Assembly: GCA_964595105.1 (NCBI GenBank)
Contig: CAZQPJ010000001.1
Location: 1 to 45,334, forward strand
DNA: 45,334 nt
Direction of reading: 5' to 3'
Source of the DNA: an uncultured Bifidobacterium sp.
Lineage (GTDB): Bacteria > Actinomycetota > Acidimicrobiia > Acidimicrobiales > Ilumatobacteraceae
Below the pieces are notes generated by a model that was not told the DNA's origin, did no database searches, and was given only the letters and a program-made list of their open reading frames with translations. This document shows positions 5,331 to 36,437 of this stretch, in pieces (within the stretch, counting starts at the first letter, position 1; each line of letters begins with the position of its first letter). A program made the translations under genes and the position numbers.

Positions 5331-5335
5331 CCGGA

Positions 5336-8923: not shown

Positions 8924-8928
8924 GCCGC
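8911..8928. terminator. 18-bp palindrome containing both stop codons of a convergent, overlapping gene pair
   Basis: GCGGCTCAccTGAGCCGC. TGA (8921-8923) ends the transporter and TCA (8916-8918) is the stop of the minus-strand GNAT-like gene. It could form a short GC-rich hairpin in either transcript. Confidence 0.25.
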
Positions 8929-10609: not shown

Positions 10610-10616
10610 GCGGAGC

Positions 10617-11159: not shown

Positions 11160-11284
11160 TGTCGTCGCCCCTTCGGCTGTGTGGTTGCTACGACGGCGGC
11201 GGGCCGCACTCGCTGCATCGGGTACTGTACTGAACCTGCTTCAAGATAGTGTCTGACGAGACACCACCGCCGCAGGAGGCACAC

Positions 11285-12043: not shown

Positions 12044-12079
12044 CGCAGCAGCACTGTTCGCTACCCTCGTCATCGACCG

Positions 12080-12097
12080 CTGAGCCTTGGGGCTCAG
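12080..12097. terminator. GC-rich hairpin between convergent genes (candidate bidirectional terminator)
   Basis: CTGAGCC-ttgg-GGCTCAG: perfect 7-bp stem, 4-nt loop. It lies 37 nt after the MinD-like stop and overlaps the TetR stop codon (12094-12096). No U-tract. Confidence 0.35.
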
Positions 12098-12735
12098 GGT
12101 CGCGCCAGGATGTCGAGCAGCACCGTGCGCACGTGAGCGCGCGCCATCGGAAGAAACTGACGGACGTTGGCCTCGCGCGTCGGCAGGTGATCACCACCGA
12201 CCCACACCGACATTCCGAGCGCCAGCCACCCGACCACCGCTGCGGCGAACCCGACGTCACCTGCCTCGAGCTCGGCAGGATCGCCGATGCCGCGCAGCTG
12301 GGCTCTCGCCTCGCGCACCAACTGCTGCAGATTGCCGAAGTTCCGGGTGCCGGCCGCCGCGAGTCGTTGTTGCGCAGGGTCGGCAGGATTCGGGGTTCCA
12401 ATCGCAACTGCCGGGAAGTCGAGCGCTGCAGCGAGGCCGGGATGGTCTGCGGTCCAGTCGACCTGTCGATCGATCCACGCCAGCAGGCGGCCCACCGGGT
12501 CGTTACCGCTGGCGTCGGCGGCCGCCATCAGTTCATCGACGTATGCCTCGTACGCGGTGGCCATCGCTTCGAGAATCAACCCGTCTCGGCTGCCGAAGTG
12601 ATAGTTCACGAGCGGTTTCGACAGACCGAGTTCCTCGCAGATGTCCTGCGGACGCACCGACGCCGGGCCCTGAGCCGAGAGGTGGCGGATGGTGGCGTCG
12701 ATGAGTTGCCGACGTGCACTCGGAACATCGCTCAT
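12094..12735 (-). CDS. TetR/AcrR family transcriptional regulator
   Basis: Track ORF trimmed to ATG 12735. The N-terminal HTH (RRQLIDATIRHLSAQGPASVRPQDICEELGLSKPLVNYHFGSRDGL) is a classic TetR signature. Confidence 0.9.
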   Translation of the reverse strand: MSDVPSARRQLIDATIRHLSAQGPASVRPQDICEELGLSKPLVNYHFGSRDGLILEAMATAYEAYVDELMAAADASGNDPVGRLLAWIDRQVDWTADHPGLAAALDFPAVAIGTPNPADPAQQRLAAAGTRNFGNLQQLVREARAQLRGIGDPAELEAGDVGFAAAVVGWLALGMSVWVGGDHLPTREANVRQFLPMARAHVRTVLLDILARP

Positions 12736-12823
12736 CGCTGTCGCCACGATGCTCACCGTACTTCGCTGCGTGAGTACCGTTGAGGCGAACCGGTGCCGGT
12801 TCCGGAACAGGAGGATTCCACTC

Positions 12824-13132
12824 GTGTACGTCGATCTCACCCTCGGCCGCGCCGCAGTGCGGCAGGCCGACGACCTGAAGTCGTTGTCGGTGAAGGCGGC
12901 CGGCGGGCATGCCGATGCCGCGGTGCTGGGTGGCCTCGGTGAGCCATCCGCCGACGGGGCACACGTGTGGCTCGACGTACCGGCGCTGCGCGAGGCAGCC
13001 GCAGCCACCATCGACCCTGCCGGGCGCGCCGACTGGCTGGTGGGCTTCGACGGCATGATCGCCTACGCCACCTCGAAGGGATGGACCGACGACCAAGGCC
13101 GCGTGCGCGCCCATGTGGAGGCCGCGCCGTGA
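12824..13132 (+). CDS. hypothetical small protein (102 aa)
   Basis: GTG 12824 lies 9 nt after AGGAGG (12809-12814). The stop overlaps the GTG of the AKR gene (GTGA 13129-13132). Divergent from TetR. No family recognised. Confidence 0.45.
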   Translation: MYVDLTLGRAAVRQADDLKSLSVKAAGGHADAAVLGGLGEPSADGAHVWLDVPALREAAAATIDPAGRADWLVGFDGMIAYATSKGWTDDQGRVRAHVEAAP

Positions 13133-14097
13133 AGTACACGCGCCTCGGCAGCAGTGGCCTCCAGGTGTCGCGGATCTGTCTCGGCTGCATGAGCTTCGGC
13201 GTACCCGACCGCGGCACGCACGCGTGGACGATGCCCGAGGACGAGAGCCGGCCCTACATCCGCCGCGCCCTCGAGGCCGGCATCAATTTCTTCGACACCG
13301 CCAACATGTACTCCGACGGAACGAGTGAGGAGATCGTCGGCCGCGCCATCGCCGATTTCGCCCGACGCGAGGAAGTGGTGATCGCCACCAAGGTCTTCTA
13401 CCCGATGCGCCCCGGACCCAACGGTGGCGGGCTGTCGCGTCGGTCGATCATGCACGAGATCGACGCCAGCCTCCGTCGACTCGGCACCGACTACGTCGAC
13501 CTGTACCAGATCCACCGCTGGGACCCTCGCACTCCGATCGAGGAGACGATGGAGGCCCTCCACGACGTGGTGAAGGCCGGCAAGGCCCGATACATCGGGG
13601 CGTCGTCGATGTGGGCGTGGCAGTTCGCCAAGGCGCAACAGGTGGCGGAACGTCACGGCCTCACCAAGTTCATCAGCATGCAGAACCACTACAACCTCGT
13701 GTACCGAGAGGAAGAGCGCGAGATGCTGCCGCTGTGCCTCGACCAGGGCGTGGGTGCCATCCCCTGGAGTCCGCTCGCGCGAGGACTGCTGACACGTGAG
13801 GCCGGCACCAGCACCATCCGGTTGGAGACCGACGAGTTCGGCAAGACCATCTACGGCACTGCCGATCAGGGGGTCATCGACGCGCTTGCGACCATTGCGA
13901 GCGAGCATGGGGCCAGCAAGGCCGCTGTCGGCCTTGCGTGGGTGGCGCGCCACCCCGCGGTGAGCGCACCCATCGTGGGCACCACGAAGCCGCACCATCT
14001 CGACGACGCGCTCGCGTCGCTCGACGTGGTGCTCACCGACGACGAGGTTCGCCGCCTCGAGGAGCCGTACACGCCCCAACCGGTGTATGGCCACTGA
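13129..14097 (+). CDS. aldo/keto reductase
   Basis: VKYTRLGSSGLQVSRICLGCMSFG N-terminus, DTANMYSDGTSEEIVG (catalytic Asp/Tyr region) and IHRWD motif. 322 aa. Confidence 0.9.
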   Translation: MKYTRLGSSGLQVSRICLGCMSFGVPDRGTHAWTMPEDESRPYIRRALEAGINFFDTANMYSDGTSEEIVGRAIADFARREEVVIATKVFYPMRPGPNGGGLSRRSIMHEIDASLRRLGTDYVDLYQIHRWDPRTPIEETMEALHDVVKAGKARYIGASSMWAWQFAKAQQVAERHGLTKFISMQNHYNLVYREEEREMLPLCLDQGVGAIPWSPLARGLLTREAGTSTIRLETDEFGKTIYGTADQGVIDALATIASEHGASKAAVGLAWVARHPAVSAPIVGTTKPHHLDDALASLDVVLTDDEVRRLEEPYTPQPVYGH

Positions 14098-15448
14098 CCG
14101 CGTCCATGCACCGAACAGGCTGCGAGTGGCACTCACGGCCACTGCCTTTCTCGGCGGGCTGTGGTGGGTGTGGCACTCGGGAGGGTTCGGTGGCGTGCTC
14201 GCCGCGGCAGCAGCGGCGCTCGCCTCACTCGGCCTGCGTCGACGGTCGCCGGCGGTGTTCGGTGGGCCGACCACCGCCGTGCTGGTCACCGCGGTCGTGT
14301 GGAATGCAGCGAGCCTGCTCGTGTACGCCGTGCCCGACAATGGCGATCGGTTCAGTTCACGAGTGGCCACCTGGGGCCGCGACCACGGTTACGGCGCGGT
14401 GATCGACTGGCTCGAAGCTCGGGCCTACAGCACGCCGCCCTCGAAGGAACCGGCCACCGACCTCGGCCTCGCCACGGTGCCCACGCTCGCGTCGACCACC
14501 GTGCCCGGCGCCACGTCGACGAGCCCTCAGAACACGGTGGCCGCAACGAACTCGCCCGTCACAGCGGTACCCAGCACCATGGTGCCGCCTGCTCCTGCTC
14601 CCCCACCCGCACTCGCACCCATCTTCGATCCCCCGTTGAAGGGCGAGGGCCAGTGGGTGCCCGTCGCCCAGGCCGGTGGTGCCGACGCGATGTGGGCGAC
14701 CAGCATGCGGTCGCTGGCCGCCGCAGGGGGCGTGGTGGCCACCATGGTGGTGATCGACCAGACCCATCTTCGGGCCGGACTGTTCAACGGAAGCGAGCTG
14801 CCGGGCGGAACCTGGAAGCGAGGCAACCGCGTGCCCAACGACCTTCAGCCGGCAGTGGTCGCAGCCATGAACGGCGGTTTCCGTTTCGACCACATGAAGG
14901 GCGGGTACCTCACCGAGGGCGTGGTGGTGAAGCCGTTGCGCACGGGCGATGCCACGCTCGCCATCGACCGCTCGGGACGGGTGGCGTTGGGCGTGCTCGG
15001 CCGCGATCTCTTCGACGACGGCTCGTGGGCGTCGATGCGGCAGAACCTCGAGTTGATGGTCGACGATGGGCGCTCGAACGTACGCACGGCGATCTCGCAC
15101 GGCGTGTGGTGGGGTGCCGACAACGGTCAGGCGGTGTACGTGAAGCGGTCGGCGGTGTGCACGGTGGCCGACGGGCGGCTCGCCTACGTGATGGCCGATC
15201 CGGTCGATGCCGAACAGTTCGCGCAGTCGCTCATCACCATGGGCTGCGTCGATGCGATGCAGATGGACATCAACGTCGACTGGCCGTTGTTCACCACCTT
15301 CAGTCACGACACTGGGAAGGCGGTGCCGCACCTCGTCGACCGGCGGATGACCGGCAACGCTCGGCGCGCACTCGACGGCAGCACGAAGGACTTCGTCGCC
15401 TTCTTCGATGCCACGCTGGTGCCGGCCGGGTCGGCACTCGACCCATGA
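14087..15448 (+). CDS. membrane-anchored phosphodiester glycosidase family protein (DUF2233/NAGPA-like)
   Basis: N-terminal TM segments and a Pro/Thr/Ser-rich linker. The C-terminal domain with NGGF..GGYL..G, RSAVCTVADGRLAYVM and AMQMDIN resembles DUF2233. The ATG overlaps the AKR 3' end by 11 nt. Confidence 0.7.
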   Translation: MATDRVHAPNRLRVALTATAFLGGLWWVWHSGGFGGVLAAAAAALASLGLRRRSPAVFGGPTTAVLVTAVVWNAASLLVYAVPDNGDRFSSRVATWGRDHGYGAVIDWLEARAYSTPPSKEPATDLGLATVPTLASTTVPGATSTSPQNTVAATNSPVTAVPSTMVPPAPAPPPALAPIFDPPLKGEGQWVPVAQAGGADAMWATSMRSLAAAGGVVATMVVIDQTHLRAGLFNGSELPGGTWKRGNRVPNDLQPAVVAAMNGGFRFDHMKGGYLTEGVVVKPLRTGDATLAIDRSGRVALGVLGRDLFDDGSWASMRQNLELMVDDGRSNVRTAISHGVWWGADNGQAVYVKRSAVCTVADGRLAYVMADPVDAEQFAQSLITMGCVDAMQMDINVDWPLFTTFSHDTGKAVPHLVDRRMTGNARRALDGSTKDFVAFFDATLVPAGSALDP

Positions 15449-15465
15449 GACTCAGAGATGAGTCT
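15448..15465. terminator. short hairpin spanning the two convergent stop codons
   Basis: AGACTCA-gaga-TGAGTCT: 7-bp stem, 4-nt loop. It overlaps the TGA of the DUF2233 gene (15446-15448) and the stop/last codons of the minus-strand Tat-signal gene (15452-). Confidence 0.3.
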
Positions 15466-16069
15466 TGCTCCAGGTGCTGTTGGCGCCAGCGGCCTTCGTG
15501 AACTGGAAGTCCTGCGTGTCGGCCGCCGAACCTACGGTGCTGTCGCCGTAGGTGCAGTTGTACTCGACGTAGCCCGTGATCTGGATGGAGTCACCGCCGG
15601 CGGCGTCGATGACCGATCCGCCACTTGCATTGAGGTGCCGGAACTGGAACGACGACGTTCCCCACCCGTTCACAGTCGGGTCGGTGTACGGACTGGGAAT
15701 GCTCACCGACACCGTCGCGCCCGCCCCAGACAGAGAGGTGAACACGTTGGAGAGGGGCGGAGCGATACCCCACGCATAACTGGTGGTGTTGTCGGCGAGC
15801 GATATGACGTACGCGGTCATCTGGATCGCGACGACCTCGGCGACCGTGTTCAAACAGGTCCCGCATGGTGCAAGCGCTGAGCCTGTGCACGAGGCATCGC
15901 CGATGGAGATGGACGCACTCGGGGCCGCCCTACCGGTCACGGTCACGTCGAGGATCCCCCCCACGACCGGGTTTGCGAACGCGAAGGCTGGAAGCGACTT
16001 CACTGCAGTCGCGCCAACGACCACAGCGCCACCGACTCCCAGTTTCTTCAACGCCTCGCGTCGGTTCAT
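15452..16069 (-). CDS. Tat-signal secreted protein of unknown function (205 aa)
   Basis: Track ORF trimmed to ATG 16069, preceded by GGAG. Twin-arginine signal MNRREALKKLGVGGAVVVGATAVKSLPAFA. The mature part is Ser/Thr/Gly/Ala-rich with 4 Cys. No family recognised. Confidence 0.6.
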   Translation of the reverse strand: MNRREALKKLGVGGAVVVGATAVKSLPAFAFANPVVGGILDVTVTGRAAPSASISIGDASCTGSALAPCGTCLNTVAEVVAIQMTAYVISLADNTTSYAWGIAPPLSNVFTSLSGAGATVSVSIPSPYTDPTVNGWGTSSFQFRHLNASGGSVIDAAGGDSIQITGYVEYNCTYGDSTVGSAADTQDFQFTKAAGANSTWSKTHL

Positions 16070-16094
16070 CACGTCTCCGTGTCTGGAGTTCCGA

Positions 16095-16140
16095 TATCCC
16101 GCCAGCCTATCCGTGTATCCCACCGAATCGGGGGATACAC
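16095..16140. promoter_or_regulatory. TATCC(C) repeat cluster / 28-bp near-palindrome (candidate operator of the glycan locus)
   Basis: TATCCC (16095-16100), TATCC (16108-16112), TATCCC (16116-16121) and the inverted GGGATA (16132-16137). GTGTATCCC (16113-16121) and GGGATACAC (16132-16140) are a perfect 9-bp inverted repeat, with an inner CCGAaTCGG palindrome. The cluster lies in the 111-bp divergent spacer between the Tat-protein gene and the priming transferase gene. Confidence 0.4.
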
Positions 16141-16180
16141 AGGAAGGAGCCCCGTCATCGGTGAACGCTAGCCTCGGCGC

Positions 16181-16807
16181 GTGATCATACGAACGCCAAC
16201 CGACACTTTTCGGCGAACACTCGATGTCGCCGTGGCGGTCGGCGCGCTGGTCATCGGTTCGCCGATCATCGCCGGGGTCGCGTTACTGGTTCGGCTGCGA
16301 ATGGGCAGCCCCGTACTGTTCCGTCAGGAGCGGCTCGGGCTCGGTGGCCGCCCCTTCCGCCTCGTGAAGTTCCGAACGATGCTCCAGCCTGCGCCAGGCC
16401 GCGAGAGTCCGGAGTTCGACGCAGAGCGACTCACTGCCTTCGGACGCTTCCTGCGCTCCACCAGTCTCGACGAACTGCCGGAGTTGGTGAACCTGCTCCG
16501 TGGCGACATCACCCTCGTGGGACCACGGCCATTACCCGTCGCCTACTTCCACCGCTATCGCGGCGACGAGTTCGAGCGTTTCGAGGTGAAACCGGGCATC
16601 ACCGGCCTCGCCCAAGTGAGCGGTCGCAACACTCTCGACTGGGACGAGCGACTTGCACTCGACGTGCAGTACGTGCGCAATCGGACCATTCGGGGCGACC
16701 TAGTCATTCTCGCCCGCACCGTCGCAGTGGTGCTACGACGCGACGGTATCGACCAGACTGGAGGGGTCACCATGCACCCCCTTCCCGCCGATCGTCCCCA
16801 TGCCTGA
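16181..16807 (+). CDS. small monotopic phosphoglycosyl transferase (bacterial sugar transferase, PglC/WbaP-C-terminal type)
   Basis: 208 aa, GTG start. Re-entrant helix LDVAVAVGALVIGSPIIAGVALLV. PVLFRQERLGLGGRPFRLVKFRTM, SLDELPELVNLLRGDITLVGPRP and KPGITGLAQVSGRN closely follow the PglC-type pattern. Confidence 0.9.
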   Translation: MIIRTPTDTFRRTLDVAVAVGALVIGSPIIAGVALLVRLRMGSPVLFRQERLGLGGRPFRLVKFRTMLQPAPGRESPEFDAERLTAFGRFLRSTSLDELPELVNLLRGDITLVGPRPLPVAYFHRYRGDEFERFEVKPGITGLAQVSGRNTLDWDERLALDVQYVRNRTIRGDLVILARTVAVVLRRDGIDQTGGVTMHPLPADRPHA

Positions 16808-17171
16808 CGCGCCTCGCATCATCAGCATTCGCGAACCCCTGCCCGCCACCTTGCCCGTGCGGCGCAGCGACCTCGAGGTCGCAGAGTTCGACACCGAACT
16901 CGTCGTGTGGGATCCGGTCGCACGGATGGTGCATCACCTCCACGGCGTTGCGGCCATCCTGTTCGATGCGTGCGACGGCCTCACACCATCGAGCCAGCTC
17001 ATCGGTGAGATCCAGGAGGCAACCGGGCTGAGCCGCGCCGTCGTCGATGAGGAACTGACCACGGTGTGGCAGATGTTCAACCGTCGCTCGTTGTTCGCGC
17101 TGCCACCCGGCGTCACCGAGGAGGCGAAGCCAGCACCGCAGGCCCGTCAGCGACGCCGCAGGAGGGCATAA
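16800..17171 (+). CDS. PqqD-family (RRE-like) small protein
   Basis: 123 aa. The ATG overlaps the transferase stop by 8 nt. LEVAEFDTELVVWDPVARMVHHLHGVAAILFDACDGLTPSSQLIGEIQEATGLSRAVVDEELTTVWQMF matches the PqqD beta-strand + winged-helix pattern (E.DGE.vv.d...g..h.LN..a..iw..cDG..t..ei). Arg-rich tail. Confidence 0.65.
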   Translation: MPDAPRIISIREPLPATLPVRRSDLEVAEFDTELVVWDPVARMVHHLHGVAAILFDACDGLTPSSQLIGEIQEATGLSRAVVDEELTTVWQMFNRRSLFALPPGVTEEAKPAPQARQRRRRRA

Positions 17172-18328
17172 GCGGCCATCGTGCGGTCGATGATGGCGCG
17201 GTCGCCGAACTCGGCGGCAGCTCGTGCGGCGGCCGCAGCACCCATCGACGCGCGTAGGCCGACGTCGCCCACCAGTTGCCCGCACGCCTCGGCCAACGCC
17301 GACGCATTGCGAACCGGCACGGCAAGGCCAGTGGTGCCGGGCACCACCACCTGTCGGTTGCCACGAATGTCGGTGGCCACTGCGGGCAGCCCCATGGCCG
17401 CAGCCTCCATCGCCGCCCGCGGAAATCCTTCGCGCCAACTCGCGGTGACGAACAGGTCGAACGCCGCATAACACTCAGGCATGTCGTCGCGCCGTCCGGT
17501 GAACACCACGCCGCTGGCGGCCGCGTTCGACATCAGGTCGGGGGGCAGCGCATCGGCCTTGTCGGTGTCGGTGGGGCCCACCACCACGAGCCGGGCAGGT
17601 ACTCCCCGCGTGTGCAGCAGCGCTGCAGCATCGACGAGCTCGACGATGCCCTTCTCCACCACGAGGCGGCCAACGGTGCCGCACACCACCTCGCCGTCGG
17701 CGATGCCCCATTCGCCACGCAGTCGGGCGCGGGCACCTGGGTCAATTGCGGCCCGATCGAAGCGATGGAGGTCGATGCCGTTTCCCAATAGGCGCACCTT
17801 CCGCGCCGGAACTCTCAGCGTGCGGACCAATGTCTGCACGTCCTCCTCGTTCTGCACCAACTCCACATGACCGAACGCCGCCGCAACACGCTCGACCGCG
17901 TACACCGGCCAGCGGCGCTGCCACCGGTCGCCGGGTTGGGCATAGAGACCATGCTGGGTGTTCACCACCAACGGCACTCGAGCGAGACGCCCGGCGATGC
18001 GGCCGAGCACACCGGGTTTGGGATTGTGCGTGTGGAGGATGTGCGGACGCACCTGCCGTAGCAGGCGCACCAACTGAACGAAGGCGCGGAGGTCGTCGAG
18101 CGGCTTCGTGGAGCGCGTGAACGCCGGCACCGGCACGTGCCGCACACCCATCGCCTCGAGGGTCGCGACGTGAGGCCCGGGCGCCGACATTCCGATCACC
18201 TCGTAGCCCGCTTCGGCGTACGCCCGCAGTTGCGGCCCCAGCAACCAGTCGAGGCTCATGTCGGTGGTGGTGAGGTGCACCAGGCGGATCCGGTCGCCCT
18301 GCGGTGGTGGAAGACCCGGGGCCTTCAT
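17147..18328 (-). CDS. GT4-family glycosyltransferase
   Basis: Track ORF trimmed to ATG 18328 (ATGA overlap with upstream stop). GT-B pattern with the C-terminal EGFPRAAMEAAAMGLPAVATDIRGNRQVVVPGTTG (E-x7-E region). Confidence 0.9.
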   Translation of the reverse strand: MKAPGLPPPQGDRIRLVHLTTTDMSLDWLLGPQLRAYAEAGYEVIGMSAPGPHVATLEAMGVRHVPVPAFTRSTKPLDDLRAFVQLVRLLRQVRPHILHTHNPKPGVLGRIAGRLARVPLVVNTQHGLYAQPGDRWQRRWPVYAVERVAAAFGHVELVQNEEDVQTLVRTLRVPARKVRLLGNGIDLHRFDRAAIDPGARARLRGEWGIADGEVVCGTVGRLVVEKGIVELVDAAALLHTRGVPARLVVVGPTDTDKADALPPDLMSNAAASGVVFTGRRDDMPECYAAFDLFVTASWREGFPRAAMEAAAMGLPAVATDIRGNRQVVVPGTTGLAVPVRNASALAEACGQLVGDVGLRASMGAAAAARAAAEFGDRAIIDRTMAAYALLRRR

Positions 18329-19125
18329 CGGGTGGAACCGCGGTACTTGACGATGCCTGCCGCGCTCCGCAGCCGACCTTCGAGACGGAGCCCACCGGCC
18401 GCCTTCGCGGCGAAATGAGTGAAGCCGTCGCTGCGCTGCACTGGCGTTCGCCACAGGCGGTGGACGTCGGTGCGACCCGGACGGTTGACGCGATTACCAG
18501 CGAGCGCTGCCGACACGAAGCGCCGGCGAACCGCCACCTCGGCGGCGGGAGAACCGGGCAGTGCCTTCGGGTAGGCGAAGTGAGCGGGCATGGCGCCGGT
18601 GTGTTCGGCGAGCAACTCGATCGAGCGGTCGAGGTCGTCGGCGATCGTGTCGGCATCGGCCCGGTCGAGCAGCCAGTGGCCGTGTGTGTGCGACCCGAGC
18701 GTGACGAGGCCGGTCGACACCGCATCGCGCAAGCCCGACCACGACGCTGGTGGGGCTCCCCACGGGAACTCCACCTGTTCATCGATGAATCGCGTGGCGA
18801 CGTAGAGCGTGGCCGGCAGGTGATGCCGTTCGAGCAGTGGCACCACCACGTCGGGGAAGTCGGCCGTGCCGTCATCGAAGGTCAGCACGATGGCGGGTGT
18901 GGGGTCACCGGACGAGAGTTGTGTGAGAGCGTCGGCCAACGACGTCACCCTGTGATGTTCTGCGAGATGTCCGAGTTGCCGGTCGAACTCCGCAGCGTCG
19001 AGATCGACTTCGGATCCCGAGCCGCCTCCAACGCGGTGGTAGATGAGCACGGTCACACCGGCCGGCGGCGGTATCACCCGATCAACGGCGGCGGCAACGC
19101 GTTTCACGAACCCCTTCGCATTCAT
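18325..19125 (-). CDS. polysaccharide deacetylase (NodB homology domain)
   Basis: VLIYHRV, LTFDDGTADF and LGSHTHGH motifs. ATGA overlaps at both ends (19122-19125, 18325-18328). Confidence 0.85.
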   Translation of the reverse strand: MNAKGFVKRVAAAVDRVIPPPAGVTVLIYHRVGGGSGSEVDLDAAEFDRQLGHLAEHHRVTSLADALTQLSSGDPTPAIVLTFDDGTADFPDVVVPLLERHHLPATLYVATRFIDEQVEFPWGAPPASWSGLRDAVSTGLVTLGSHTHGHWLLDRADADTIADDLDRSIELLAEHTGAMPAHFAYPKALPGSPAAEVAVRRRFVSAALAGNRVNRPGRTDVHRLWRTPVQRSDGFTHFAAKAAGGLRLEGRLRSAAGIVKYRGSTR

Positions 19126-20195
19126 CGTCCGACAACCCGGCGATAGAGCTGAACGTGATCGGCCACCACATCGGCGATGGTACGGCCCGGGCCACGCCCG
19201 AGCGCTGCAGCGCGCATCGAGCGCCGCAATACGGGGTCGAGCGCGAGTTCGGCGATTGCCTCTCCGAGCGCCGACGGGTCGGAGGGCGGCACCACCCTTC
19301 CCACATCACGCCCGACCAACTCGGGCACCCGACCCACGGCCGTGGCCACCACCGGCACCCCCAGCGCCAGCGCCTCACCGACCACCAACGGCTGGCCCTC
19401 GTAGTCGCTCGACACCACGAGAAAATCGGCTTCGGCGATGAGCGGCAGGACATCACGCTCGGGTGGACGCCACTCGGTGACCGCACCAAGACCGAGCCCA
19501 TCGGCCATGCGGCGATGTGTGGCCAACAGCGGACCCTCTCCCACTGCCAGCAGTGAGACACCAGCCCCCCGGCCACGTGCATACGACACGGCTCTCAGCA
19601 GGTTCGGGTAGTTCTTCGCATCGCGATGACTGGCCACCACGATGGCCCGCACGCCGACTCGTTCATCCGACGACTCGGCACGACGAGCGGCCGCCACAGC
19701 GACCGCATCGATGCCGTGCGGCACCACGATGACACGACGAGCGAACTGCCGCGGCAACGAGGCCTGCACAGCGGCCGAGACGGCCACGCTGGCGACCTCG
19801 CGACGAGACGTGGCGCGCAGCAGCAGTCGCGTGCCGGCGCGCAACGCGGACCACGGCGTGTGCGATGTGCCGATGGAGCGCCGCGACCGCGCCAGGCGCA
19901 CCATCACGCTCGGCAACGGTCCATGGGCGTGCACCACGTCGAACCTCGGTTGTCGAGCCAGCAGAGCGAGTCGGCGCGCCGCTGCCCAGCCCACACGGTC
20001 GGTGCCGCCCAGTCGGTGCACCACCACGCCGACATCCTCGAGAAACTGCATCATGGCGTCGCGGCGATCGTTCACCACCGCCACCTCGACAGGCACCCCG
20101 GCAGCGGCGAGGCCCACGGCGAGGTCGACCACGATGCGTTCGATACCACCCACGTCGAGCCCTTTGGCCACCAGCAGTACGCGGGGTTCGCTCAT
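19122..20195 (-). CDS. GT4-family glycosyltransferase
   Basis: Track ORF trimmed to ATG 20195 (ATGA overlap). VLLVAKGLDVGGIERIVVDLA N-terminus. YEGQPLVVGEALALGVPVVATAVGRVPELV E-x7-E region. Confidence 0.85.
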   Translation of the reverse strand: MSEPRVLLVAKGLDVGGIERIVVDLAVGLAAAGVPVEVAVVNDRRDAMMQFLEDVGVVVHRLGGTDRVGWAAARRLALLARQPRFDVVHAHGPLPSVMVRLARSRRSIGTSHTPWSALRAGTRLLLRATSRREVASVAVSAAVQASLPRQFARRVIVVPHGIDAVAVAAARRAESSDERVGVRAIVVASHRDAKNYPNLLRAVSYARGRGAGVSLLAVGEGPLLATHRRMADGLGLGAVTEWRPPERDVLPLIAEADFLVVSSDYEGQPLVVGEALALGVPVVATAVGRVPELVGRDVGRVVPPSDPSALGEAIAELALDPVLRRSMRAAALGRGPGRTIADVVADHVQLYRRVVGR

Positions 20196-21313
20196 CGCCG
20201 CAGTCTCGCGAATCGAAGGCCACGCCGGAGTTGCCGGCCGATGGTGAGTCCGCGGCCCTGTCGCACCCCTCGTGGTGGAAGGGCGACTCCCCCGACGAAG
20301 CGAATGCCGTCGAGGAACGACAACGCCATCAGTTGACTGCGCGCGTCGGCAATCCATCCGACACCCTTGCCGCTGTCGGCGTACCGAAGTGCGAGGAGGG
20401 CGCGCCCGGACGGCGACACCGTCGCGGCCCAGATCGCCATCGGGTGTTCCCGCGGCACCACACCTGCACCAACCGCTTCCGTGACCGCCAGGGCGAGCAC
20501 CGACTCTCCATCGCCAGAACGGGCGAGTTCGAGCGATCGCCGCCAGTCGATTCCGGTGACGAGCAGTTGCTGGGCGAGGTCGCGCAGGTAGCGGTGCGTG
20601 GAACCTCGGCTGAGGACAGCCGCGTAGCAGGACAACAGGAGGCGGGCAGGCCCCCCGAGTGAGGCACACACGACACCGCCAAGAGTGAACCGGTCGGCGT
20701 CGCGCACCAGCATCTCGTGGTCGAGTGCCGCCCCGAAGTAACCCGGGGCGATCGACACATGGAGGTCGACTTCAACGTCGTGCTGCGAGCGCAGCATCAC
20801 GGCCCGGGCGAAGCGACCTTCCCATCCTCGGCGCGGCGGTGGCTCGGTCCGACGGAAACCAGCCGCGCCAAGCGCCTCGACCGCGGCATGCAACTGCGGC
20901 CGGGCCACCAACACGTCGACGTCCCCGGTCGAACGCCACGCAGGGTCGGGATAGTCGATCTGGGCCACTGGCACACCCTTGATGAGCCACGCATCCACAC
21001 CTGCGGCGCTCAACACCTCGATCACGCGAACCGCCGTGGCCTCGCACACGAGCGAGGTCCGCATCTGCCCGATGAGCAGACCCACGCCTCGAGCATCGAA
21101 CCGGCGGTCGACATCGATGGATTGCAGGAGATCGACGAACACACCCGCGAGTTGCTGGCCAGCTGCCCACTGGGCCACGTGCTGCACCGTCGGAACGGTG
21201 AGCTCATCGAGTGCGAGCGTCGCCGTGGGGCCCACATCGGGAAGGCCGTGCACGAGTACCGCATGCTGCAGCCGGTTGAGCGCCGACTCGTCGGCGGGTG
21301 CGGCATCGCTCAT
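20192..21313 (-). CDS. PF14907-type (NTP_transf_5) uncharacterised nucleotidyltransferase family protein
   Basis: 373 aa. WLIKGVPVAQIDYPDPAWRSTGDVDVLV followed by HDVEVDLHVSI matches the family pattern (KG...y......R...DiDlLv ... vElH). ATGA overlaps at both ends. Confidence 0.7.
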   Translation of the reverse strand: MSDAAPADESALNRLQHAVLVHGLPDVGPTATLALDELTVPTVQHVAQWAAGQQLAGVFVDLLQSIDVDRRFDARGVGLLIGQMRTSLVCEATAVRVIEVLSAAGVDAWLIKGVPVAQIDYPDPAWRSTGDVDVLVARPQLHAAVEALGAAGFRRTEPPPRRGWEGRFARAVMLRSQHDVEVDLHVSIAPGYFGAALDHEMLVRDADRFTLGGVVCASLGGPARLLLSCYAAVLSRGSTHRYLRDLAQQLLVTGIDWRRSLELARSGDGESVLALAVTEAVGAGVVPREHPMAIWAATVSPSGRALLALRYADSGKGVGWIADARSQLMALSFLDGIRFVGGVALPPRGVRQGRGLTIGRQLRRGLRFARLRR

Positions 21314-22146
21314 TGATCAGGCACCACCGCCGAGGGCACGGCGGCGCTGACCAAACGATCGAGTGAGGCCACCATCAGACCGAGATCCGTCCGCGGCATC
21401 TGCACGGCGGGCACGGCACGCACCAGTCGCTCGAGCCTCCGGAACACCTCCCGCTCGACGCCGGCGGCGCCATGCACATTGCTGAGCAGTGTGGTGAGGG
21501 CAGCAGCCGGTGACATCGCCTCGACGACACCATCCGCTGTGGGCGGCGTGAGGAAGACGAGCACCGTCACACGTGTGCGATCAGCCAACCGACCGAGCGC
21601 GCTGCCCCGCCATGGCTCCACCACATCGAACAGCTCGTCGTCTCGCCGAGCGAGACGGAGGTGAAGGAGCCCACCACGCCGCAGCCCGAGTGGCCGATGG
21701 AATGCGTGGGCAACGTGGTGATCGTCCACGAGTCCGAGTTCGTCGGAGACATACCCCCACCCGGAACGCACAGCACCAGCCGCCAATGTCGTCTTGCCGA
21801 AGCCGCTGTAGCCGATGATGGCGCACCCGACGCCGTCACGATCGACGACAGCGGCGTGGATGGCGGCATGTTGCCGCGACCAGTGCTCAGCCACCGTCTC
21901 GTTCACCATTGCGAGCGCCGCGTGGAGCGCCTTCGAGGAGTCGAGGGCGGTTCCCGCTGGTATCCCACCCCGGTGGAGGTCGAAGGTGCCATCGACGGCG
22001 GTCGTGATGGTGAGGGCCGGAGCAGTCGACGACACGGCTGGCACACGAAGGTCGGCGAGTGCCTCGATGAGCACTGAAGCGAGCGGCTCCGCTGCCGAGA
22101 GAGTGAAGCCGCACTCGCCTGCGGCGAACGCTGCCGTTGCGGTCAC
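21310..22146 (-). CDS. HPr-kinase-related P-loop kinase (HprK C-terminal-domain homologue)
   Basis: Start set at GTG 22146 (GTGA overlap with the Wzy-like stop), giving 278 aa. P-loop AIIGYSGFGKTTLAAGAVRSGWGYVSDELGLVD (nt 21787-21813 encode GYSGFGKTT) parallels HprK G.SG.GKS..AL.L...GH.L.aDD. Confidence 0.75.
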   Translation of the reverse strand: MTATAAFAAGECGFTLSAAEPLASVLIEALADLRVPAVSSTAPALTITTAVDGTFDLHRGGIPAGTALDSSKALHAALAMVNETVAEHWSRQHAAIHAAVVDRDGVGCAIIGYSGFGKTTLAAGAVRSGWGYVSDELGLVDDHHVAHAFHRPLGLRRGGLLHLRLARRDDELFDVVEPWRGSALGRLADRTRVTVLVFLTPPTADGVVEAMSPAAALTTLLSNVHGAAGVEREVFRRLERLVRAVPAVQMPRTDLGLMVASLDRLVSAAVPSAVVPDQ

Positions 22147-23513
22147 ACTGTCACCTTGGGTCGGGCGCGGCCCTGCGGCAACGGGGGCCGGTAGGGCGCC
22201 GTCGGCTTCCACGGCGGCACCGACACCAGCAACACCATGAACGGCATGGCGAGCGACCGCTGCCGGGTGAGCAGCCCGAGATTGCGGAACGTGCTGAAGG
22301 CGAGTCCGAACATCACCAGCACCGACAACGCGAACCAGAGATAGGGACTCCTGCGCATCATCACCACCACGTTCACCACGCGCCGCCACCCGATCGCTGC
22401 CAGCACGGCGAGGGCGAACATCTCGAGGCCGGGAAGGAGTTCGGTGAACGTGGCGACCTCGGTGATGAAGGGCCGTGTGAGCGTTCGCAGCACAGCGCCG
22501 GGCCAATCGAGCGGACCACTGATCACCACCGGCGAGAAGGTAGAGCCTCCCGTGTCGGTTCGGTTCTCCGTCGACTGGAAGATGGCGTCGATCCGATCGA
22601 CGAGTGGGGCAGCGTCGGCAGCGTCGCCGCGAGGGCTCAGGAATCGGAGTGCGGAACTGGCTGCCAGCCCGAACGTGATGGCGACGACGGCCACCAACAC
22701 GAAACTGCCGAGGCGGCTCTCATTCGCGCCGGGTGAACGCCGCACCAGCACCGATGCAACTAGGCCGATCACGAGGCCACCAGTCCACATGGCCGACAGG
22801 TGTGGCCGGACAAGCGCGGCCAAGAAGACCCCGATGACGGTGATCGGGATGGTCCACCCACGCCACCTTCCGTGCAGCAGGCCTGCGCCGCCGTAGGTGA
22901 GGAGCCCGAGGAACAGCATCATCAACGCTTCCTTGCCAATGCTCGACGGCCAGAACATCAGCGAGGGAGCGAAGAAGACGAGCAGCGCGTACCGACGCCT
23001 GCTGAGGCCGGGCACCGCGCGTATGCCGGCCAACACGAACAGCGTCGCGCCGATGAATCCAAGCCACGAGTAGACGAAGAACCCACCGAGGCGGCTGCTG
23101 CCGAAGATGGTGTACACGCTCGCGGTGAAGCGTTCGACGAAGTGGGTGCTGTTGCCCGACGGGATGATGTTCGACAGCGAGGCTGCCCCACTGCGGATGT
23201 CGCCCGCCAACTGGCGACCGAAGGCGTCGTAGCGGGCCGCATCGGCACTGCCGGCGTATGCATCGAAGGCCACCCAGTAGCGGAAGATCGATCCGCCGAA
23301 CTTGGCGAACAGTCCCGCCACCGCAATCGGGAAGAGCCGACTCAGGTCACCTCTGAACACGCGGCGCAGGATCGGCACCGTGACGGCCACGAGGATCGGA
23401 GCGATCACGAAACCTCCCCACACCTCGTAGGAGAGACTCGACATCGCCCATCCGGTGACCACCACGTACAACAGTGCGCCGAGCACCGCGACGCCTTCGT
23501 ACCTCGGACGCAT
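22143..23513 (-). CDS. polytopic membrane protein, Wzy-like polymerase / O-antigen-ligase-like (family not resolved)
   Basis: 456 aa, roughly 10 or more hydrophobic spans with one large soluble loop (SPRGDAADAAPLVDRIDAIFQSTENRTDTGGSTFSP...). It lies directly after the Wzz/BY-kinase gene (3-nt gap). Call rests on topology and context only. Confidence 0.5.
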   Translation of the reverse strand: MRPRYEGVAVLGALLYVVVTGWAMSSLSYEVWGGFVIAPILVAVTVPILRRVFRGDLSRLFPIAVAGLFAKFGGSIFRYWVAFDAYAGSADAARYDAFGRQLAGDIRSGAASLSNIIPSGNSTHFVERFTASVYTIFGSSRLGGFFVYSWLGFIGATLFVLAGIRAVPGLSRRRYALLVFFAPSLMFWPSSIGKEALMMLFLGLLTYGGAGLLHGRWRGWTIPITVIGVFLAALVRPHLSAMWTGGLVIGLVASVLVRRSPGANESRLGSFVLVAVVAITFGLAASSALRFLSPRGDAADAAPLVDRIDAIFQSTENRTDTGGSTFSPVVISGPLDWPGAVLRTLTRPFITEVATFTELLPGLEMFALAVLAAIGWRRVVNVVVMMRRSPYLWFALSVLVMFGLAFSTFRNLGLLTRQRSLAMPFMVLLVSVPPWKPTAPYRPPLPQGRARPKVTV

Positions 23514-23516
23514 GGG

Positions 23517-25436
23517 TCAGTCCGTTCGGTCGTCGATGTCGTCGATGTCGTCGATGCCGTGATCGTCCCGCAGCGGGTCGTCGACCAACACCGCAGCGGT
23601 CGGTTCGTCCGGCTCGGCCTCGACGAATTCATCGATGGTGTGCGAACCGCTGATGGCGGCGTCATCGGCCCGCTGCGAACGCCGTCGACGACCGTTGGAG
23701 CCGGTGGCAGAACTGTCCGACGAGCGGTCGTTGCGCAACGCCTCGAGCCACTTCTTCGTCTTCGGCGTGCGACGGGTGCGGTTGTAGTCGGCGCCATAAC
23801 TGCCGTACTCGTAGTAGTAGTAGTAGTTGCCCTTGTCGGACGCATCACCCACCACGGCCAGCAACAGGTCGGCGGTGGTGAGCGACCTCAGCACCTCGAT
23901 GGTGCGCTGGGCGGTGGCGATGGAGGTGTTGCCGAGGCGGGTCACCACCACGATCACGTCGGCCAACGGCACGAGTTCGAGCACCTCGGCCGTGGCACCG
24001 ATGGGTGACGAGTCGACGACGATGGCATCGGCCAACTTCGCGAGGCGGGGCAGGAACTGCGCGGTGGTGCGAGCCAGGCCGCCGTGGGTGCCGCCGGGTA
24101 CACCCGCGAGGTCCATCAGCGCGAGACCGGGCACCGGAGTGCGGCTCAGCAGGAACCGCGGCGGCAACGAGGCGAGTTCGGCTGCGGTGAACCCCATCGG
24201 CTGCGGCTTGCTGCCGAGGATGCGGGTGCTCAGGGTGGGTCGGCGGAAGTCGGTGTTCACCGCAATGGTGCGCGAACCGGTTTCCACGAAGGCGGCCGCG
24301 AGGTTGGCGGTGACCGAGGTCTTGCCGTCGCCGGGGCTGGCCGACACCACGAGCACGATCGGGGCTCGACCCTCGTCCTTGGCCGAGCCGCCCTCCACGA
24401 AGCCGAGCACACTGCGCAGTGTTCGGTACGAGTCGGACAGTCCGTCGTGCCGAGTGGGGCTGACGACGATGCCGCGGGCCTGTTCCGCGGGAGCCACGGG
24501 GATGGTGACGTTCGCACGGATGCCGAAGATCTGTTCGGCCTGGGAACGGGTGCGGATTCGCCGGTCGGCTCGAGCCAGCAGCAGGGCGATGCCAGCGCCG
24601 ACGAGACCGCCGAGGAAACCGCCGAGCACACCGCGGCTGAGGCGCGAGCGGGGCGCAGCCAGGCCTCGACCGGCATTGCTGAGCACCTTCACCGGCTGCG
24701 CCGATTCGAGCGTGGTGAGGACGATCTGCGATTGCGTGTCGCCGAGCGACGACTGCTGTTCGTAGGCGGCGCTGTATCGGCGGCTGATGGCGTCGAGTTG
24801 CGAACGGACGACCTCGTCGTTCTGGTTCAGCGCCAGCTTGTTCTGGAGCGTGCGCATCTGTGACTGCAGGTCTTCGAGGCGCTTCTGCACTGCGGCCGAG
24901 CGCTGCTCGACGAGCACGTCCTGACGCTCGGCGAGGTAGGCGGTGAGTTCCTCGGCGAACGCGTCGGCGATGTCGACGGCTCGTTGCGCCGACGCCTGCT
25001 CGGTGCCGATGCGGATCGCGCCGGTCTGTGCGTTGAGCTCGACCGTGAGTTCACTGGCCAACTGGGCGGGCTCGCCGTCGTAGCCGAGGCGCTTCGCTGC
25101 TCGGGCGGGAACCTCGCCCACCGTGGCGAACAGTTCCAACTGGTTGAAGGTGGTCTGGTTCTGGAAGATGTCGTTGCCGGTGGGGTCGGACACCAACAGC
25201 GTGTGGTTGGCCTTGTAGGTGACGTTCTGGTCGGGCGAATCGGCGGTGGTGGTGGGATTGGGCAACGCCCCGAGGAGCATGCCCACTGCGGCCAGCAGGA
25301 CGACGATCCACCACCGGCGGCGAAGAGCGAGGAGAAGCGACTCTCTATCCACTTGTGCGGTGACCTCATCCGGGGGGCGGCGCGACCCGACCGATCGCGA
25401 TTCACCACACATTAGGCGCTGGAGTGGCACACTCAT
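23517..25436 (-). CDS. polysaccharide co-polymerase (Wzz domain) fused to BY-type tyrosine autokinase
   Basis: N-terminal TM, long coiled-coil Wzz-like periplasmic region and a second TM. Then P-loop VVSASPGDGKTSVTANLA with VNTDFRRP and IVVDSSP motifs, and the C-terminal Tyr cluster GNYYYYYEYGSYGADYN. The start may lie downstream (e.g. GTG 25352). Confidence 0.9.
   Translation of the reverse strand: MSVPLQRLMCGESRSVGSRRPPDEVTAQVDRESLLLALRRRWWIVVLLAAVGMLLGALPNPTTTADSPDQNVTYKANHTLLVSDPTGNDIFQNQTTFNQLELFATVGEVPARAAKRLGYDGEPAQLASELTVELNAQTGAIRIGTEQASAQRAVDIADAFAEELTAYLAERQDVLVEQRSAAVQKRLEDLQSQMRTLQNKLALNQNDEVVRSQLDAISRRYSAAYEQQSSLGDTQSQIVLTTLESAQPVKVLSNAGRGLAAPRSRLSRGVLGGFLGGLVGAGIALLLARADRRIRTRSQAEQIFGIRANVTIPVAPAEQARGIVVSPTRHDGLSDSYRTLRSVLGFVEGGSAKDEGRAPIVLVVSASPGDGKTSVTANLAAAFVETGSRTIAVNTDFRRPTLSTRILGSKPQPMGFTAAELASLPPRFLLSRTPVPGLALMDLAGVPGGTHGGLARTTAQFLPRLAKLADAIVVDSSPIGATAEVLELVPLADVIVVVTRLGNTSIATAQRTIEVLRSLTTADLLLAVVGDASDKGNYYYYYEYGSYGADYNRTRRTPKTKKWLEALRNDRSSDSSATGSNGRRRRSQRADDAAISGSHTIDEFVEAEPDEPTAAVLVDDPLRDDHGIDDIDDIDDRTD
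23529..23555. repeat. three perfect tandem copies of GTCGTCGAT (encode IDDIDDIDD at the kinase C-terminus)
   Basis: Read directly: GTCGTCGAT at 23529-23537, 23538-23546 and 23547-23555, followed by the degenerate copy GCCGTGATC. Confidence 0.9.
23811..23825. repeat. (GTA)5 trinucleotide run = (TAC)5 encoding the YYYYY core of the BY-kinase tyrosine cluster
   Basis: Read directly: gtagtagtagtagta at 23811-23825. Confidence 0.9.
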
Positions 25437-25441
25437 GGCTC

Positions 25442-34688: not shown

Positions 34689-36437
34689 TCAGTGGAGGCC
34701 CGACAACTTCAGCGCCCGTTGGTAGAACTCGTTGTCTCGGGCGAGTGCCGCTGGCGAATCGAACGCCTTCAGCTCGCCGTCCTGCACCACCATGATCCGG
34801 TCGCAGATGTCGAGGGTCGACAGGCGGTGGGCGATGATCACCACCGACACTCGTCCGCGAAGACGTTCGAGCGTCTCGCGGATGAGGTGTTCCGACTCGA
34901 CGTCGAGCGCGCTCGTCGGTTCGTCGAGCACCAACAGTTCGGGCTTCTCCACCAGCGCCCTGGCGATCACGAGGCGCTGCTGCTGTCCGCCGCTGAGGTG
35001 GCTCCCCAGTTCGCCGACGAAACGTTCGTACGCTTCGGGCCACGCCACAACGTCACCATGGAGGTTCGAGAGCCGTGCCGCCTCCTCGATGTCGGCCTGG
35101 GTGACACCGTCGCGCATGAAGCGGATGTTGTGTGCCACCGTTCCGGCCACGAGGTGCGGTTGCTGCGGGACGAAGGTGACCTTGCGCGCCCATTCGGCAC
35201 GCGAGAGCGTGGCGACGTCGCGGCCACCGGCGGTGACTCGGCCACTGTCGGGATCTCGCAACGCCAGCATCAACTGCACCAATGTCGACTTGCCGCTACC
35301 CGAAGGCCCCACCACTCCCACGATTTCGCCGGGCTCGATGGTGAAACTGAGATCGGTCAGCACCGGTCGGCCGTCCTGGTAACCGAACGACACCTGATCG
35401 AACGACAGCGACCCGAGTGCGCCGATGGGAGCGCCTCCATCGATGATCTGGTTGGCCTGAAGCCGTTCGAGTTCGGCGTCGAGTGCCTCGAGGAAGGGAA
35501 AGGTCGACAGGATGCCGCCCGATGCCCCCTGCAACGCTTGGCCATACGTCAGCGAGCGCAGCATCACCAGCATCACCGGGCCCACCGATGCGAGAGCGAC
35601 CGACTCGACCGACGAGGTCGCCCACAGGGCGATCAGCACTGCTGCATAGGCAAGTGCGCTGTACGCGGCAGGGTTGAGCGCACGAAGGAAGTAGAGACGA
35701 CGGTTCTGTGCGGCGTTCACCAACGTCTCCTCCCGAACACTCGCCTCCACTGCGCCCTGTACGTGGAAGACGTGGAGGTCGACTGCGGCTTGGGAGTACT
35801 CGCCGAGGAAGGTCGCGAACTCCATGCCCGAGGCAACCGTGCGTTTCGCCTGCCGGCGCAAAGCACCTCGAATGGGTCGCAGCACCGAACTCAGCACTCC
35901 CACTGCTGCGATGACGGCGATCGACGCCACAGGGTCGACCGCCACGGCAGTTGCAAGCAGTGTGAACAGGCTCAGCAGCGCACCGAGCCATTGGGTGATC
36001 GACTGCGAGAGGTCGGAGACGCGTTGGGTGAACGTGGTGAGCAGTTCCTGCAACCGGCCCACCCGGTCGCCGTGCTGCACCTTCCAGGTCGCCCCGAGGT
36101 ACGCCTTCGCCAACGTGAGGCGGCTCTGCAGGGTGATGTCGTAGGTGAGGTTCGACGACTGGCGCGCGGCCGCAGCGGCGCACCCGAACCGCGCCACCAC
36201 CATCACTGCTGCGATGACCAATGCCCACTTCAGTTCGACACGAACCCCGGCGAGCACACCCACGCGGTCGCGTCCGTCGGTGATAGCGAACGCAAGACGG
36301 GTGATCACCACGAGGAAGCCCGCCTCGAGCAGTCCTCCGGCGAGGTTCGACAGGATGAGGCCCACGAGGCGCGCCCGACGACCGTCGAACAGATGCACCA
36401 TCCTGCGGACGTCACTCGTTCGACGCTGTCGACCCAC
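34689..36437 (-). CDS. ABC exporter, fused permease + ATPase (MsbA/PglK-like half transporter)
   Basis: 582 aa. GTG 36437 lies 7 nt after GAGGAGG. N-terminal 6-TM domain. Walker A GPSGSGKST, signature LSGGQQQRLVIARAL and Walker B LLVLDEPTSALD. Confidence 0.9.
   Translation of the reverse strand: MGRQRRTSDVRRMVHLFDGRRARLVGLILSNLAGGLLEAGFLVVITRLAFAITDGRDRVGVLAGVRVELKWALVIAAVMVVARFGCAAAAARQSSNLTYDITLQSRLTLAKAYLGATWKVQHGDRVGRLQELLTTFTQRVSDLSQSITQWLGALLSLFTLLATAVAVDPVASIAVIAAVGVLSSVLRPIRGALRRQAKRTVASGMEFATFLGEYSQAAVDLHVFHVQGAVEASVREETLVNAAQNRRLYFLRALNPAAYSALAYAAVLIALWATSSVESVALASVGPVMLVMLRSLTYGQALQGASGGILSTFPFLEALDAELERLQANQIIDGGAPIGALGSLSFDQVSFGYQDGRPVLTDLSFTIEPGEIVGVVGPSGSGKSTLVQLMLALRDPDSGRVTAGGRDVATLSRAEWARKVTFVPQQPHLVAGTVAHNIRFMRDGVTQADIEEAARLSNLHGDVVAWPEAYERFVGELGSHLSGGQQQRLVIARALVEKPELLVLDEPTSALDVESEHLIRETLERLRGRVSVVIIAHRLSTLDICDRIMVVQDGELKAFDSPAALARDNEFYQRALKLSGLH

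Follow-up and report, generated by a model that had tools for sequence, protein, structure and literature searches.

Gene sets that combine a RiPP recognition element (RRE; RiPPs are peptides made on the ribosome and modified after translation), an HprK-like kinase and a nucleotidyltransferase (NTase) have been described in connection with peptide tailoring. In Bacillota, such sets lie inside capsule loci as linear polyphosphorylated peptide (LPP) clusters and polyphosphorylate a single Ser in a precursor of 35–200 amino acids that bears a leader, as LppK does at Ser3 of LppA (Popov et al., Nat Commun 2026; PMC13381572). In clusters for phosphorylated lasso peptides, a B1 RRE is accompanied by the kinase PadeK/PsmK and by PsmN, a PF14907 enzyme required for the addition of hexose to the phosphate (PMC6993621). 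A further set, the HPr-rel-A system, is defined computationally in NCBIfam by a PqqD-family peptide chaperone (TIGR04353) and an HprK-related kinase A (TIGR04352). We know of no experimental work on the HPr-rel-A system, and a full-text literature search found no paper on HPr-rel-A, TIGR04352, HprK-related kinase or PF14907/NTP_transf_5. Here, we analyze a stretch of 45,334 nucleotides (hereafter the window; contig CAZQPJ010000001.1 of assembly GCA_964595105.1, GTDB family Ilumatobacteraceae) in which a PqqD-like protein of 123 amino acids, P0002, is encoded directly behind a PglC-like phosphoglycosyltransferase (PGT), within a Wzy/Wzc-type polysaccharide locus of ~30 kb. The host appears to be a freshwater, Acidimicrobiia-like bacterium, and the locus one for surface polysaccharide. 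We give a probability of roughly 0.6 to the reading that P0002 is a discrete RRE adaptor of an 'HPr-rel-A'/LPP-type kinase/NTase tailoring module inside this locus.

The set in the window works like the LPP clusters, the lasso tailoring trio and the HPr-rel-A system, but it is a member of none of them by their defining features. As in the LPP clusters, a stand-alone RRE, a kinase of the HprK-like kind and a PF14907-type NTP transferase are present, the genes are embedded in a capsule/exopolysaccharide locus, and the precursors or candidate precursors are conserved at the N-terminus but vary in their C-terminal part, which reaches ~200 amino acids (PMC13381572). However, the candidates in the window are without the YxxPxVLxHQxIxFETxxS leader and carry twin-arginine leaders (M[ND]RRxALKKLxxGGA...AFA) instead, the phylum is a different one, and there are two separate RRE-like genes, one of which is coupled to a PGT. 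The MsbA-like exporter of the LPP core has a possible counterpart in an ABC exporter that lies in the neighbourhood, although at a distance of 17 kb, and that may serve glycan export instead. A SipW-like leader peptidase (archaeal-type signal peptidase I) was not found among the ~33 open reading frames (ORFs) of the window scanned against Pfam, a scan that was not exhaustive in the first 9 kb; the twin-arginine signal would presumably be removed by the housekeeping signal peptidase.

With the phosphorylated lasso set, the window has three protein families in common, including an NTase with the PsmN-type DxD motif, and lasso B1 proteins with bound leader are the best structural matches of the P0002 model. 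By contrast, the window has no short precursor, and neither the lasso cyclase (Asn-synthase-like) nor the transglutaminase-like B2 protease is among its annotated ORFs. In one homologous locus from the survey described below (L019), a genuine lasso-type set (3084-8362; Asn-synthase-like cyclase, PqqD, transglutaminase-like B2, ScmC/HprK-like kinase and ABC exporter) adjoins a distinct Wzc-PqqD-Tat protein-kinase-NTase module (8418-14272), which shows the two systems to be separate, and this pairing mirrors the lasso/LPP co-location reported for Bacillota. With the HPr-rel-A system, to which the window set is related by sequence, it shares a small PqqD-fold protein whose gene is associated with that of an HprK-like P-loop kinase. 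However, P0002 has no TIGR04353 match, and the kinase, although its best NCBIfam match is TIGR04352, reaches only 49.4 bits against a cut-off of 200. Further, the PqqD gene stands 4.1 kb apart from the kinase gene and is coupled to the PGT, and the set is woven into a Wzy/Wzc operon. The PGT itself resembles PglC from bacillosamine (PglF/E/D/C) sets in being a single-domain Bac_transf enzyme of 208 amino acids with PglF-, PglE- and PglD-like genes in the same locus, and we know of no described PglC with a PqqD-fold partner gene. The paper that introduced RRE-Finder mentions neither kinase nor polysaccharide contexts (PMC7470986). Taken together, what is distinctive in the window is the twin-arginine-type candidate leader and the presence of two dispersed RRE-like genes, one of them coupled to a PglC-type PGT.

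Judged from its homologues and its predicted fold, P0002 is a real PqqD/RRE-fold protein at the family level, though it lies under the curated thresholds. A profile search recovered 170 homologues, several of which JGI annotates as 'PqqD family protein of HPr-rel-A system', and a whole-library search gave 290 clusters at E <= 1e-10. In the first homologue search (n = 11), all but one of the close homologues had a PqqD match in Pfam (10/11, best E 1.2e-8), and many homologues carry precomputed PF05402 matches. P0042, a PGT-adjacent homologue that is 37% identical to P0002, passes TIGR04353 (38.6 vs. 35 bits), and P0028 scores 34.4. A sequence-profile search of the PDB returned only a marginal match, to a lasso PqqD chaperone (E 0.018). 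The AlphaFold2 (AF2) model built on an alignment of 42 sequences has a predicted local distance difference test (pLDDT) score of 89.6 and was used in place of a single-sequence AF2 model, which was unusable (pLDDT 50.7). It places a three-stranded antiparallel sheet before three helices in the order β1-β2-β3-α1-α2-α3, with a structured core at residues ~17-96 (β1 26-30, β2 33-38, β3 43-48, α1 49-57, α2 64-75, α3 79-95), followed by a disordered Pro/Arg-rich tail (100-123). The best PDB matches found by Foldseek are TbiB1 with bound leader (5v1v/5v1u; TM-score 0.83-0.86, root-mean-square deviation 1.6-1.7 Å), then PqqD (5sxy) and lasso B1 (6jx3), so that the RRE fold proposed in an earlier note on this DNA is borne out by the structure check that it called for. 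The residues P19, A28, F30, V36, H45 and C58 are invariant in the family, within the pattern LPxR..EVAEFDxExVV..VHxL.G..AVVFDACDG. The gene is under purifying selection, with a ratio of nonsynonymous to synonymous substitution rates (dN/dS) of 0.29-0.58 against three orthologues, and its GC content is 0.80 at third (GC3) and 0.49 at second (GC2) codon positions, in DNA of 68% GC.

The genomic context of PqqD was recovered for 44 loci, ~25 of them non-redundant, from metagenome-assembled genomes labelled Ilumatobacteraceae, Acidimicrobiales or Actinomycetota. The constant partners of the family in these loci are the HprK-like kinase, the PF14907 nucleotidyltransferase and a Tat-signal (twin-arginine translocation) protein family, and not the PGT. 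Whatever gene precedes PqqD, an HprK-like and/or PF14907 gene occurs within a few kb in most of the ~25 non-redundant loci with enough flank. Ten longer relatives were scanned against Pfam and include natural fusions of PqqD to these enzymes: PF14907-PqqD in P0257 (474 amino acids) and PqqD-HprK-like in P0140 (394 amino acids), with a radical-SAM/SPASM-PqqD protein of 529 amino acids (P0225) as a third type. No fusion of PqqD to a PGT, a GT4 glycosyltransferase or Wzc was found among the ten. A class of 360-420 amino acids has an N-terminal PqqD domain and a C-terminal part without assignment (L006, 1254-2501; L043, 6778-8004). The conserved co-location and the fusions agree with the earlier proposal that the kinase and the NTase are the likely enzymatic partners of P0002. 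The same proposal had called it unusual that these partners lie 3-5 kb away on the opposite strand, but the survey indicates otherwise: the kinase/NTase unit usually converges on the PqqD gene, which ends its own transcription unit, and this layout is conserved in the family.

The third constant partner offers a candidate substrate. Members of the Tat-signal family are 165-245 amino acids long and start with the twin-arginine signal M[ND]RRxALKK[LM]xxGGA...AFA, and their mature parts are rich in Ser, Thr and Gly, with conserved Cys residues, of which that in 'SCxGS' and that in the C-terminal '[WY]xC' are kept. The family is the only non-enzymatic one that recurs beside PqqD. It was seen in the window (15452-16069) and in L001, L006, L010, L017-L021, L027, L032, L043 and L044, with two to three tandem paralogues in L010 and L018. 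In 15 loci it lies within ~2.5 kb of PqqD, usually as the next gene, and it directly follows PqqD in L006, L008, L010, L017, L018, L019, L021 and L043; in the lineage of the window it is found on the far side of the PGT and is divergent. Across 14 members, the signal segments have a median identity of 60%, versus 21% for the mature parts, whereas signal peptides usually show the reverse pattern. This is no more than suggestive of RiPP precursors, in which the leader is conserved and the core variable, and shared ancestry and the constraints of the Tat motif also contribute to the conservation of the signal. A hypothetical analogy may be drawn to the Tat proofreading chaperones, or redox enzyme maturation proteins (REMPs; e.g., TorD, DmsD and NapD), which bind the Tat signal and keep the substrate cytoplasmic until its modification is done. 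If P0002 reads the twin-arginine leader, it would likewise bind a Tat signal and retain its substrate, although REMPs have an unrelated fold and serve cofactor insertion rather than covalent tailoring.

We therefore favour a model, built on these conserved associations, in which the RRE adaptor would bind the N-terminal leader of a locus-encoded protein, most likely that of the Tat-signal protein, and present it to the HprK-like kinase for phosphorylation of a Ser. The adaptor would also present the protein to the PF14907 enzyme, which might decorate the phosphate, possibly with a sugar derived from the locus, and export would follow decoration. As an overlapping last cistron behind the PGT, the PqqD gene would be co-expressed with glycan initiation from one promoter region that would also serve the divergent substrate gene. 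Both enzymes look intact by motif (P-loop GYSGFGKT in the kinase, DVD in the NTase). A dedicated PGT-RRE complex is not indicated by the data. An extended version of the model, which we regard as improbable, would have the Tat signal double as a RiPP-style leader: the PGT-coupled RRE would hold the substrate at the membrane initiation enzyme, the kinase would phosphorylate Ser, and a locus-specific phosphosugar or glycan would be added by the PF14907 enzyme or even, with phospho-Ser taking the place of undecaprenyl phosphate, by the PglC-like PGT. The resulting protein-glycan phosphodiester might then be trimmed or 'uncovered' outside the cell by the NAGPA protein encoded at 14087-15448.

The features of the window and the genes found upstream of PqqD in the survey are given in Table 1. 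The PGT shows a full Bac_transf domain and one N-terminal membrane helix, as expected of a monotopic PGT: its single hydrophobic segment (12-42) is a re-entrant-type helix with a Ser-Pro pair, a DE dyad is present in SLDELPE, and of TIGR03025-type enzymes only the C-terminal domain is matched. The divergent Tat-signal gene is separated from the PGT gene by a 111-bp spacer. On the minus strand, the genes between 25436 and 17147 make up a single operon, on which the PGT and PqqD genes converge; the polytopic membrane protein encoded there may be a Wzy-like polymerase or ligase. Further out are PglE-, PglF- and PglD-like genes, more GT4 genes, a DUF4012 protein and a low-molecular-weight protein tyrosine phosphatase (LMW-PTP). 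A complete-looking PglF/PglE/PglD/PglC-type set (38860-40692, -; 25424-26572, +; 41303-41989, -; 16181-16807, +) suggests that the first sugar is a diacetamido-trideoxyhexose (bacillosamine-like). Bacillosamine-type chemistry is familiar above all from general systems of protein glycosylation. The second small PqqD-like gene lies directly upstream of the PglD-like acetyltransferase gene (PglD_N match) and ~25 kb from the kinase gene, and its orthologue is immediately upstream of the HprK-like kinase gene in L009, L017, L018 and L043. The NAGPA protein (14087-15448, +) has a phosphodiester glycosidase ('uncovering enzyme') domain, and its gene adjoins the locus and is syntenic in L001-L002; the protein might have as its target sugar-1-phosphodiester linkages like those that a kinase and PF14907 pair is presumed to build. 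Inside the locus, a 168-amino-acid Ig-like surface protein with a Sec signal (40792-41298, +) ends in a sortase-type sorting signal (LPTSG, a hydrophobic stretch and RRRRTRTA).

Table 1. Features of the window discussed in the text, and classes of gene found upstream of PqqD in the surveyed loci (E, E-value; aa, amino acids; nt, nucleotides).
Feature	Position or loci	Strand	Evidence and remarks
Tat-signal secreted protein, 205 aa from Met 16069	15452..16069	-	TIGR01409; Ser/Thr/Gly-rich, Cys-containing
PglC-like small monotopic PGT, 208 aa	16181..16807	+	PF02397 E 4.8e-56, residues 11-185, 178/179 profile positions
PqqD/RRE-fold protein P0002, 123 aa	16800..17171	+	Pfam, AF2, Foldseek, dN/dS
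Convergent overlap of PqqD tail and GT4 C-terminus	17147..17171	both	25 nt, tail-to-tail
GT4 glycosyltransferase, last gene of minus-strand operon	17147..18328	-	Pfam; junction
Polysaccharide deacetylase, carbohydrate esterase family CE4	18325..19125	-	PF01522 E 1.3e-19
Second GT4 glycosyltransferase	19122..20195	-	Pfam; junction
PF14907 (NTP_transf_5) nucleotidyltransferase	20192..21313	-	E 1.6e-20; GDVDV metal-binding motif 129-133
HprK-like kinase, 278 aa	21310..22146	-	P-loop GYSGFGKT; Hpr_kinase_C E 6e-4
Polytopic membrane protein, at least 7 hydrophobic segments	22143..23513	-	Without Pfam match; syntenic in L001, L009, L011, L017
Wzz-type chain-length regulator fused to BY-kinase (bacterial tyrosine kinase) ATPase, first gene of minus-strand operon	23517..25436	-	Pfam, NCBIfam
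ABC exporter (ABC_membrane + ABC_tran)	34689..36437		17 kb away, same polysaccharide locus
Second small PqqD-like protein, 88 aa	42020..42286	-	hmmsearch, PqqD2 profile, E 1.3e-17
Gene upstream of PqqD: PglC-like PGT	window, L001-5, L009, L011, L012, L017, L020, L026		
Gene upstream of PqqD: Wzz/BY-kinase	L008, L010, L019, L027-30, L032, L044		
Gene upstream of PqqD: GT4	L018, L031, L033, L034, L041, L042		
Gene upstream of PqqD: 408-415-aa protein with own PqqD domain	L006, L043		

At its 5′ end, the PqqD gene is interlocked with the PGT gene in the manner described by the earlier note: the final PGT codons are CAT GCC TGA, with TGA at 16805-16807, and the PqqD ATG at 16800 overlaps this stop by 8 nt (16800..16807, ATGCCTGA). 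This ATG is the sole start codon upstream of the conserved domain in the open frame, and the N-terminus MPDAPR is shared by homologues; a Shine-Dalgarno-like purine run is not present directly 5′ of the overlap ATGCCTGA. Stoichiometric co-production of the PGT and P0002 might follow from this arrangement. At the 3′ end, the frame closes with CGT CAG CGA CGC CGC AGG AGG GCA TAA (17145-17171; R-Q-R-R-R-R-R-A-stop), and the convergent GT4 ends in Y-A-L-L-R-R-R with its stop codon at 17147-17149, so that the Arg-rich tail and the RRR C-terminus do share 25 nt, as had been noticed. The overlap leaves no space for a terminator between the two genes, and a scan of 15900-17600 for promoters and terminators detected nothing, including no terminator-like site. 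Convergent overlaps on the GT4 side of PqqD measure 22 nt in L001 and 34 nt in L004. We considered whether the 25-nt overlap by itself accounts for the Arg-rich tail and rejected this, since the tail is a family trait that persists in homologues without a convergent gene behind them (e.g., P0042 in L017, and P0014). In some family members a C-terminal PPPC[VLT]GCG motif precedes an Arg/Trp-rich tail, whereas the window protein has only a Pro-rich linker and the Arg run.

Several observations weigh against the adaptor reading. The search with PqqD hidden Markov models that the earlier note had recommended turned out positive for homologues, as described above, but negative for P0002 itself, which scores 18.1 bits (E 0.0033) against PF05402 (PqqD), under the gathering score of 23.4, and has no NCBIfam match at all, with none to TIGR04353 (cut-off 35 bits) even at E <= 1. 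The candidate leader looks like a plain Tat signal, without the [Y/W]xxP motif read by known lasso and LPP RREs, and no Tat-family gene is present in the DNA available for L009, L011, L012, L033/34 and L042. Further, the loci were gathered via PqqD, so the survey is biased. Finally, the adjacency to the PGT appears to be old and to have persisted, and a functional link to that enzyme is therefore conceivable.

Such a link is the basis of the best-surviving alternative, which we nevertheless consider unlikely: the RRE would dock on, or be delivered to, the membrane-bound monotopic PGT, and would either regulate initiation or hold a (phospho)peptide acceptor, so that the first phosphosugar or the completed glycan is placed on a protein and not only on undecaprenyl phosphate. 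Adjacency of PGT and PqqD, which the earlier note had proposed to survey, does recur in related genomes, with overlaps of 4 or 8 nt in ~9 non-redundant Acidimicrobiia-type loci, down to ~37% PqqD identity (8 nt in L001-L005, L020 and possibly L017; 4 nt in L009 and L011), and the arrangement in the lineage is often PglD-PglC-PqqD. The overlap sequence ATGCCTGA and the N-terminus MPD(E) are conserved in four lineages, and the PGTs that precede PqqD form a group of their own (at least 60% identity), whereas those of loci with PqqD elsewhere are ~49% identical. In a maximum-likelihood tree of PqqD, the PGT-adjacent state is found on both sides of the midpoint, with at least three changes, and the Wzc-adjacent loci form one derived clade. 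Therefore, the PGT coupling looks ancestral and long-kept, and yet repeatedly replaced. The disordered tail, being rich in Arg, could be drawn to an anionic membrane or a pyrophosphate, and both RRE-like genes of the genome adjoin bacillosamine-pathway genes, since one lies behind the PGT and the other by the PglD-like gene.

However, PqqD lost its place next to the PGT on at least three occasions and kept its association with the kinase and NTase, and in nearly every locus its start lies within the end of the upstream gene, whichever that is, with an overlap of 4 or 8 nt and with identical coupling behind Wzc-like and GT4 genes. Overlapping junctions are also the norm in the locus, and therefore the 8-nt overlap is not exceptional here: in the minus-strand operon (17147-25436), in which seven genes are chained, the first junction is a 3-nt gap and all five downstream junctions are ATGA/GTGA overlaps of 4 nt. 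Fusions are known with the kinase and with the NTase, and the ten longer relatives scanned include none with a PGT. The C-terminal tail of the PGT, GVTMHxLP, was considered as a specific RRE ligand and rejected, because counterparts occur in PGTs that are not adjacent to PqqD. The specific tie to the priming transferase envisaged in the earlier note is thus not sustained, given that sister clades couple PqqD to a Wzz/BY-kinase, a GT4 or a PqqD-fusion gene; that the RRE is functionally tied to this enzyme is possible, but it is not the best-supported reading.

Next in order, and also unlikely in our estimate, is that the RRE, kinase and NTase act on a substrate other than the Tat-signal protein, such as a short unannotated peptide, the LPxTG-like surface protein (40792-41298) or the tail of a polysaccharide-assembly protein, e.g., the BY-kinase. 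LPP precursors can be as short as 35 amino acids and are hard to call (PMC13381572), the available DNA of some related loci contains no Tat-family gene, and one clade has PqqD directly after the Wzz/BY-kinase gene. However, no small conserved ORF was seen next to PqqD across the loci, and the Tat-leader family, present near PqqD in 15 loci, is the only recurring non-enzymatic neighbour.

It is much less probable that P0002 is a DNA-binding regulator of the locus, of the winged-helix type, with only a likeness to an RRE and with an Arg-rich tail that contacts DNA. RREs are similar in structure to winged helix-turn-helix regulators, and it is mainly regulators that RRE finders pick up as false positives (PMC7470986); the tail is basic, and two homologues have a weak match to the KorA repressor family. 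By contrast, the seven best structural matches are all RRE/PqqD proteins (five TbiB1 chains with leader peptide, PqqD, and lasso B1 with leader) with no regulator among them, the sequence profiles matched by homologues are PqqD and TIGR04353, relatives are fused to enzymes, and the gene stands at an operon end, coupled to an enzyme gene. Least of all do we credit a chance open frame, for although such frames are frequent at 68% GC and both curated thresholds were missed, this is already refuted by the conservation and fold data, namely the homologues and clusters recovered, the dN/dS values, the invariant core residues, the confident fold prediction, and the GC3 and GC2 values.

Sets of an RRE, an HprK-like kinase and a PF14907 enzyme occur in polysaccharide loci of several phyla, and one family of them is characterised (LPP, 2026). 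Read as an adaptor of such a set, P0002 belongs to a locus family that provides a concrete substrate candidate, the Tat-leader protein family, and a clear genetic link to glycan initiation in the form of PglD-PglC-PqqD operons, together with natural 'experiments' in which the adaptor gene has become joined to Wzc or GT4 genes instead. Should the adaptor not read the Tat signal, the locus family would still offer a well-delimited module fit for heterologous reconstitution. If it does, the reach of RREs would widen from short peptides to proteins that are exported, and RiPP-type tailoring would be linked to the assembly of cell-surface glycans.

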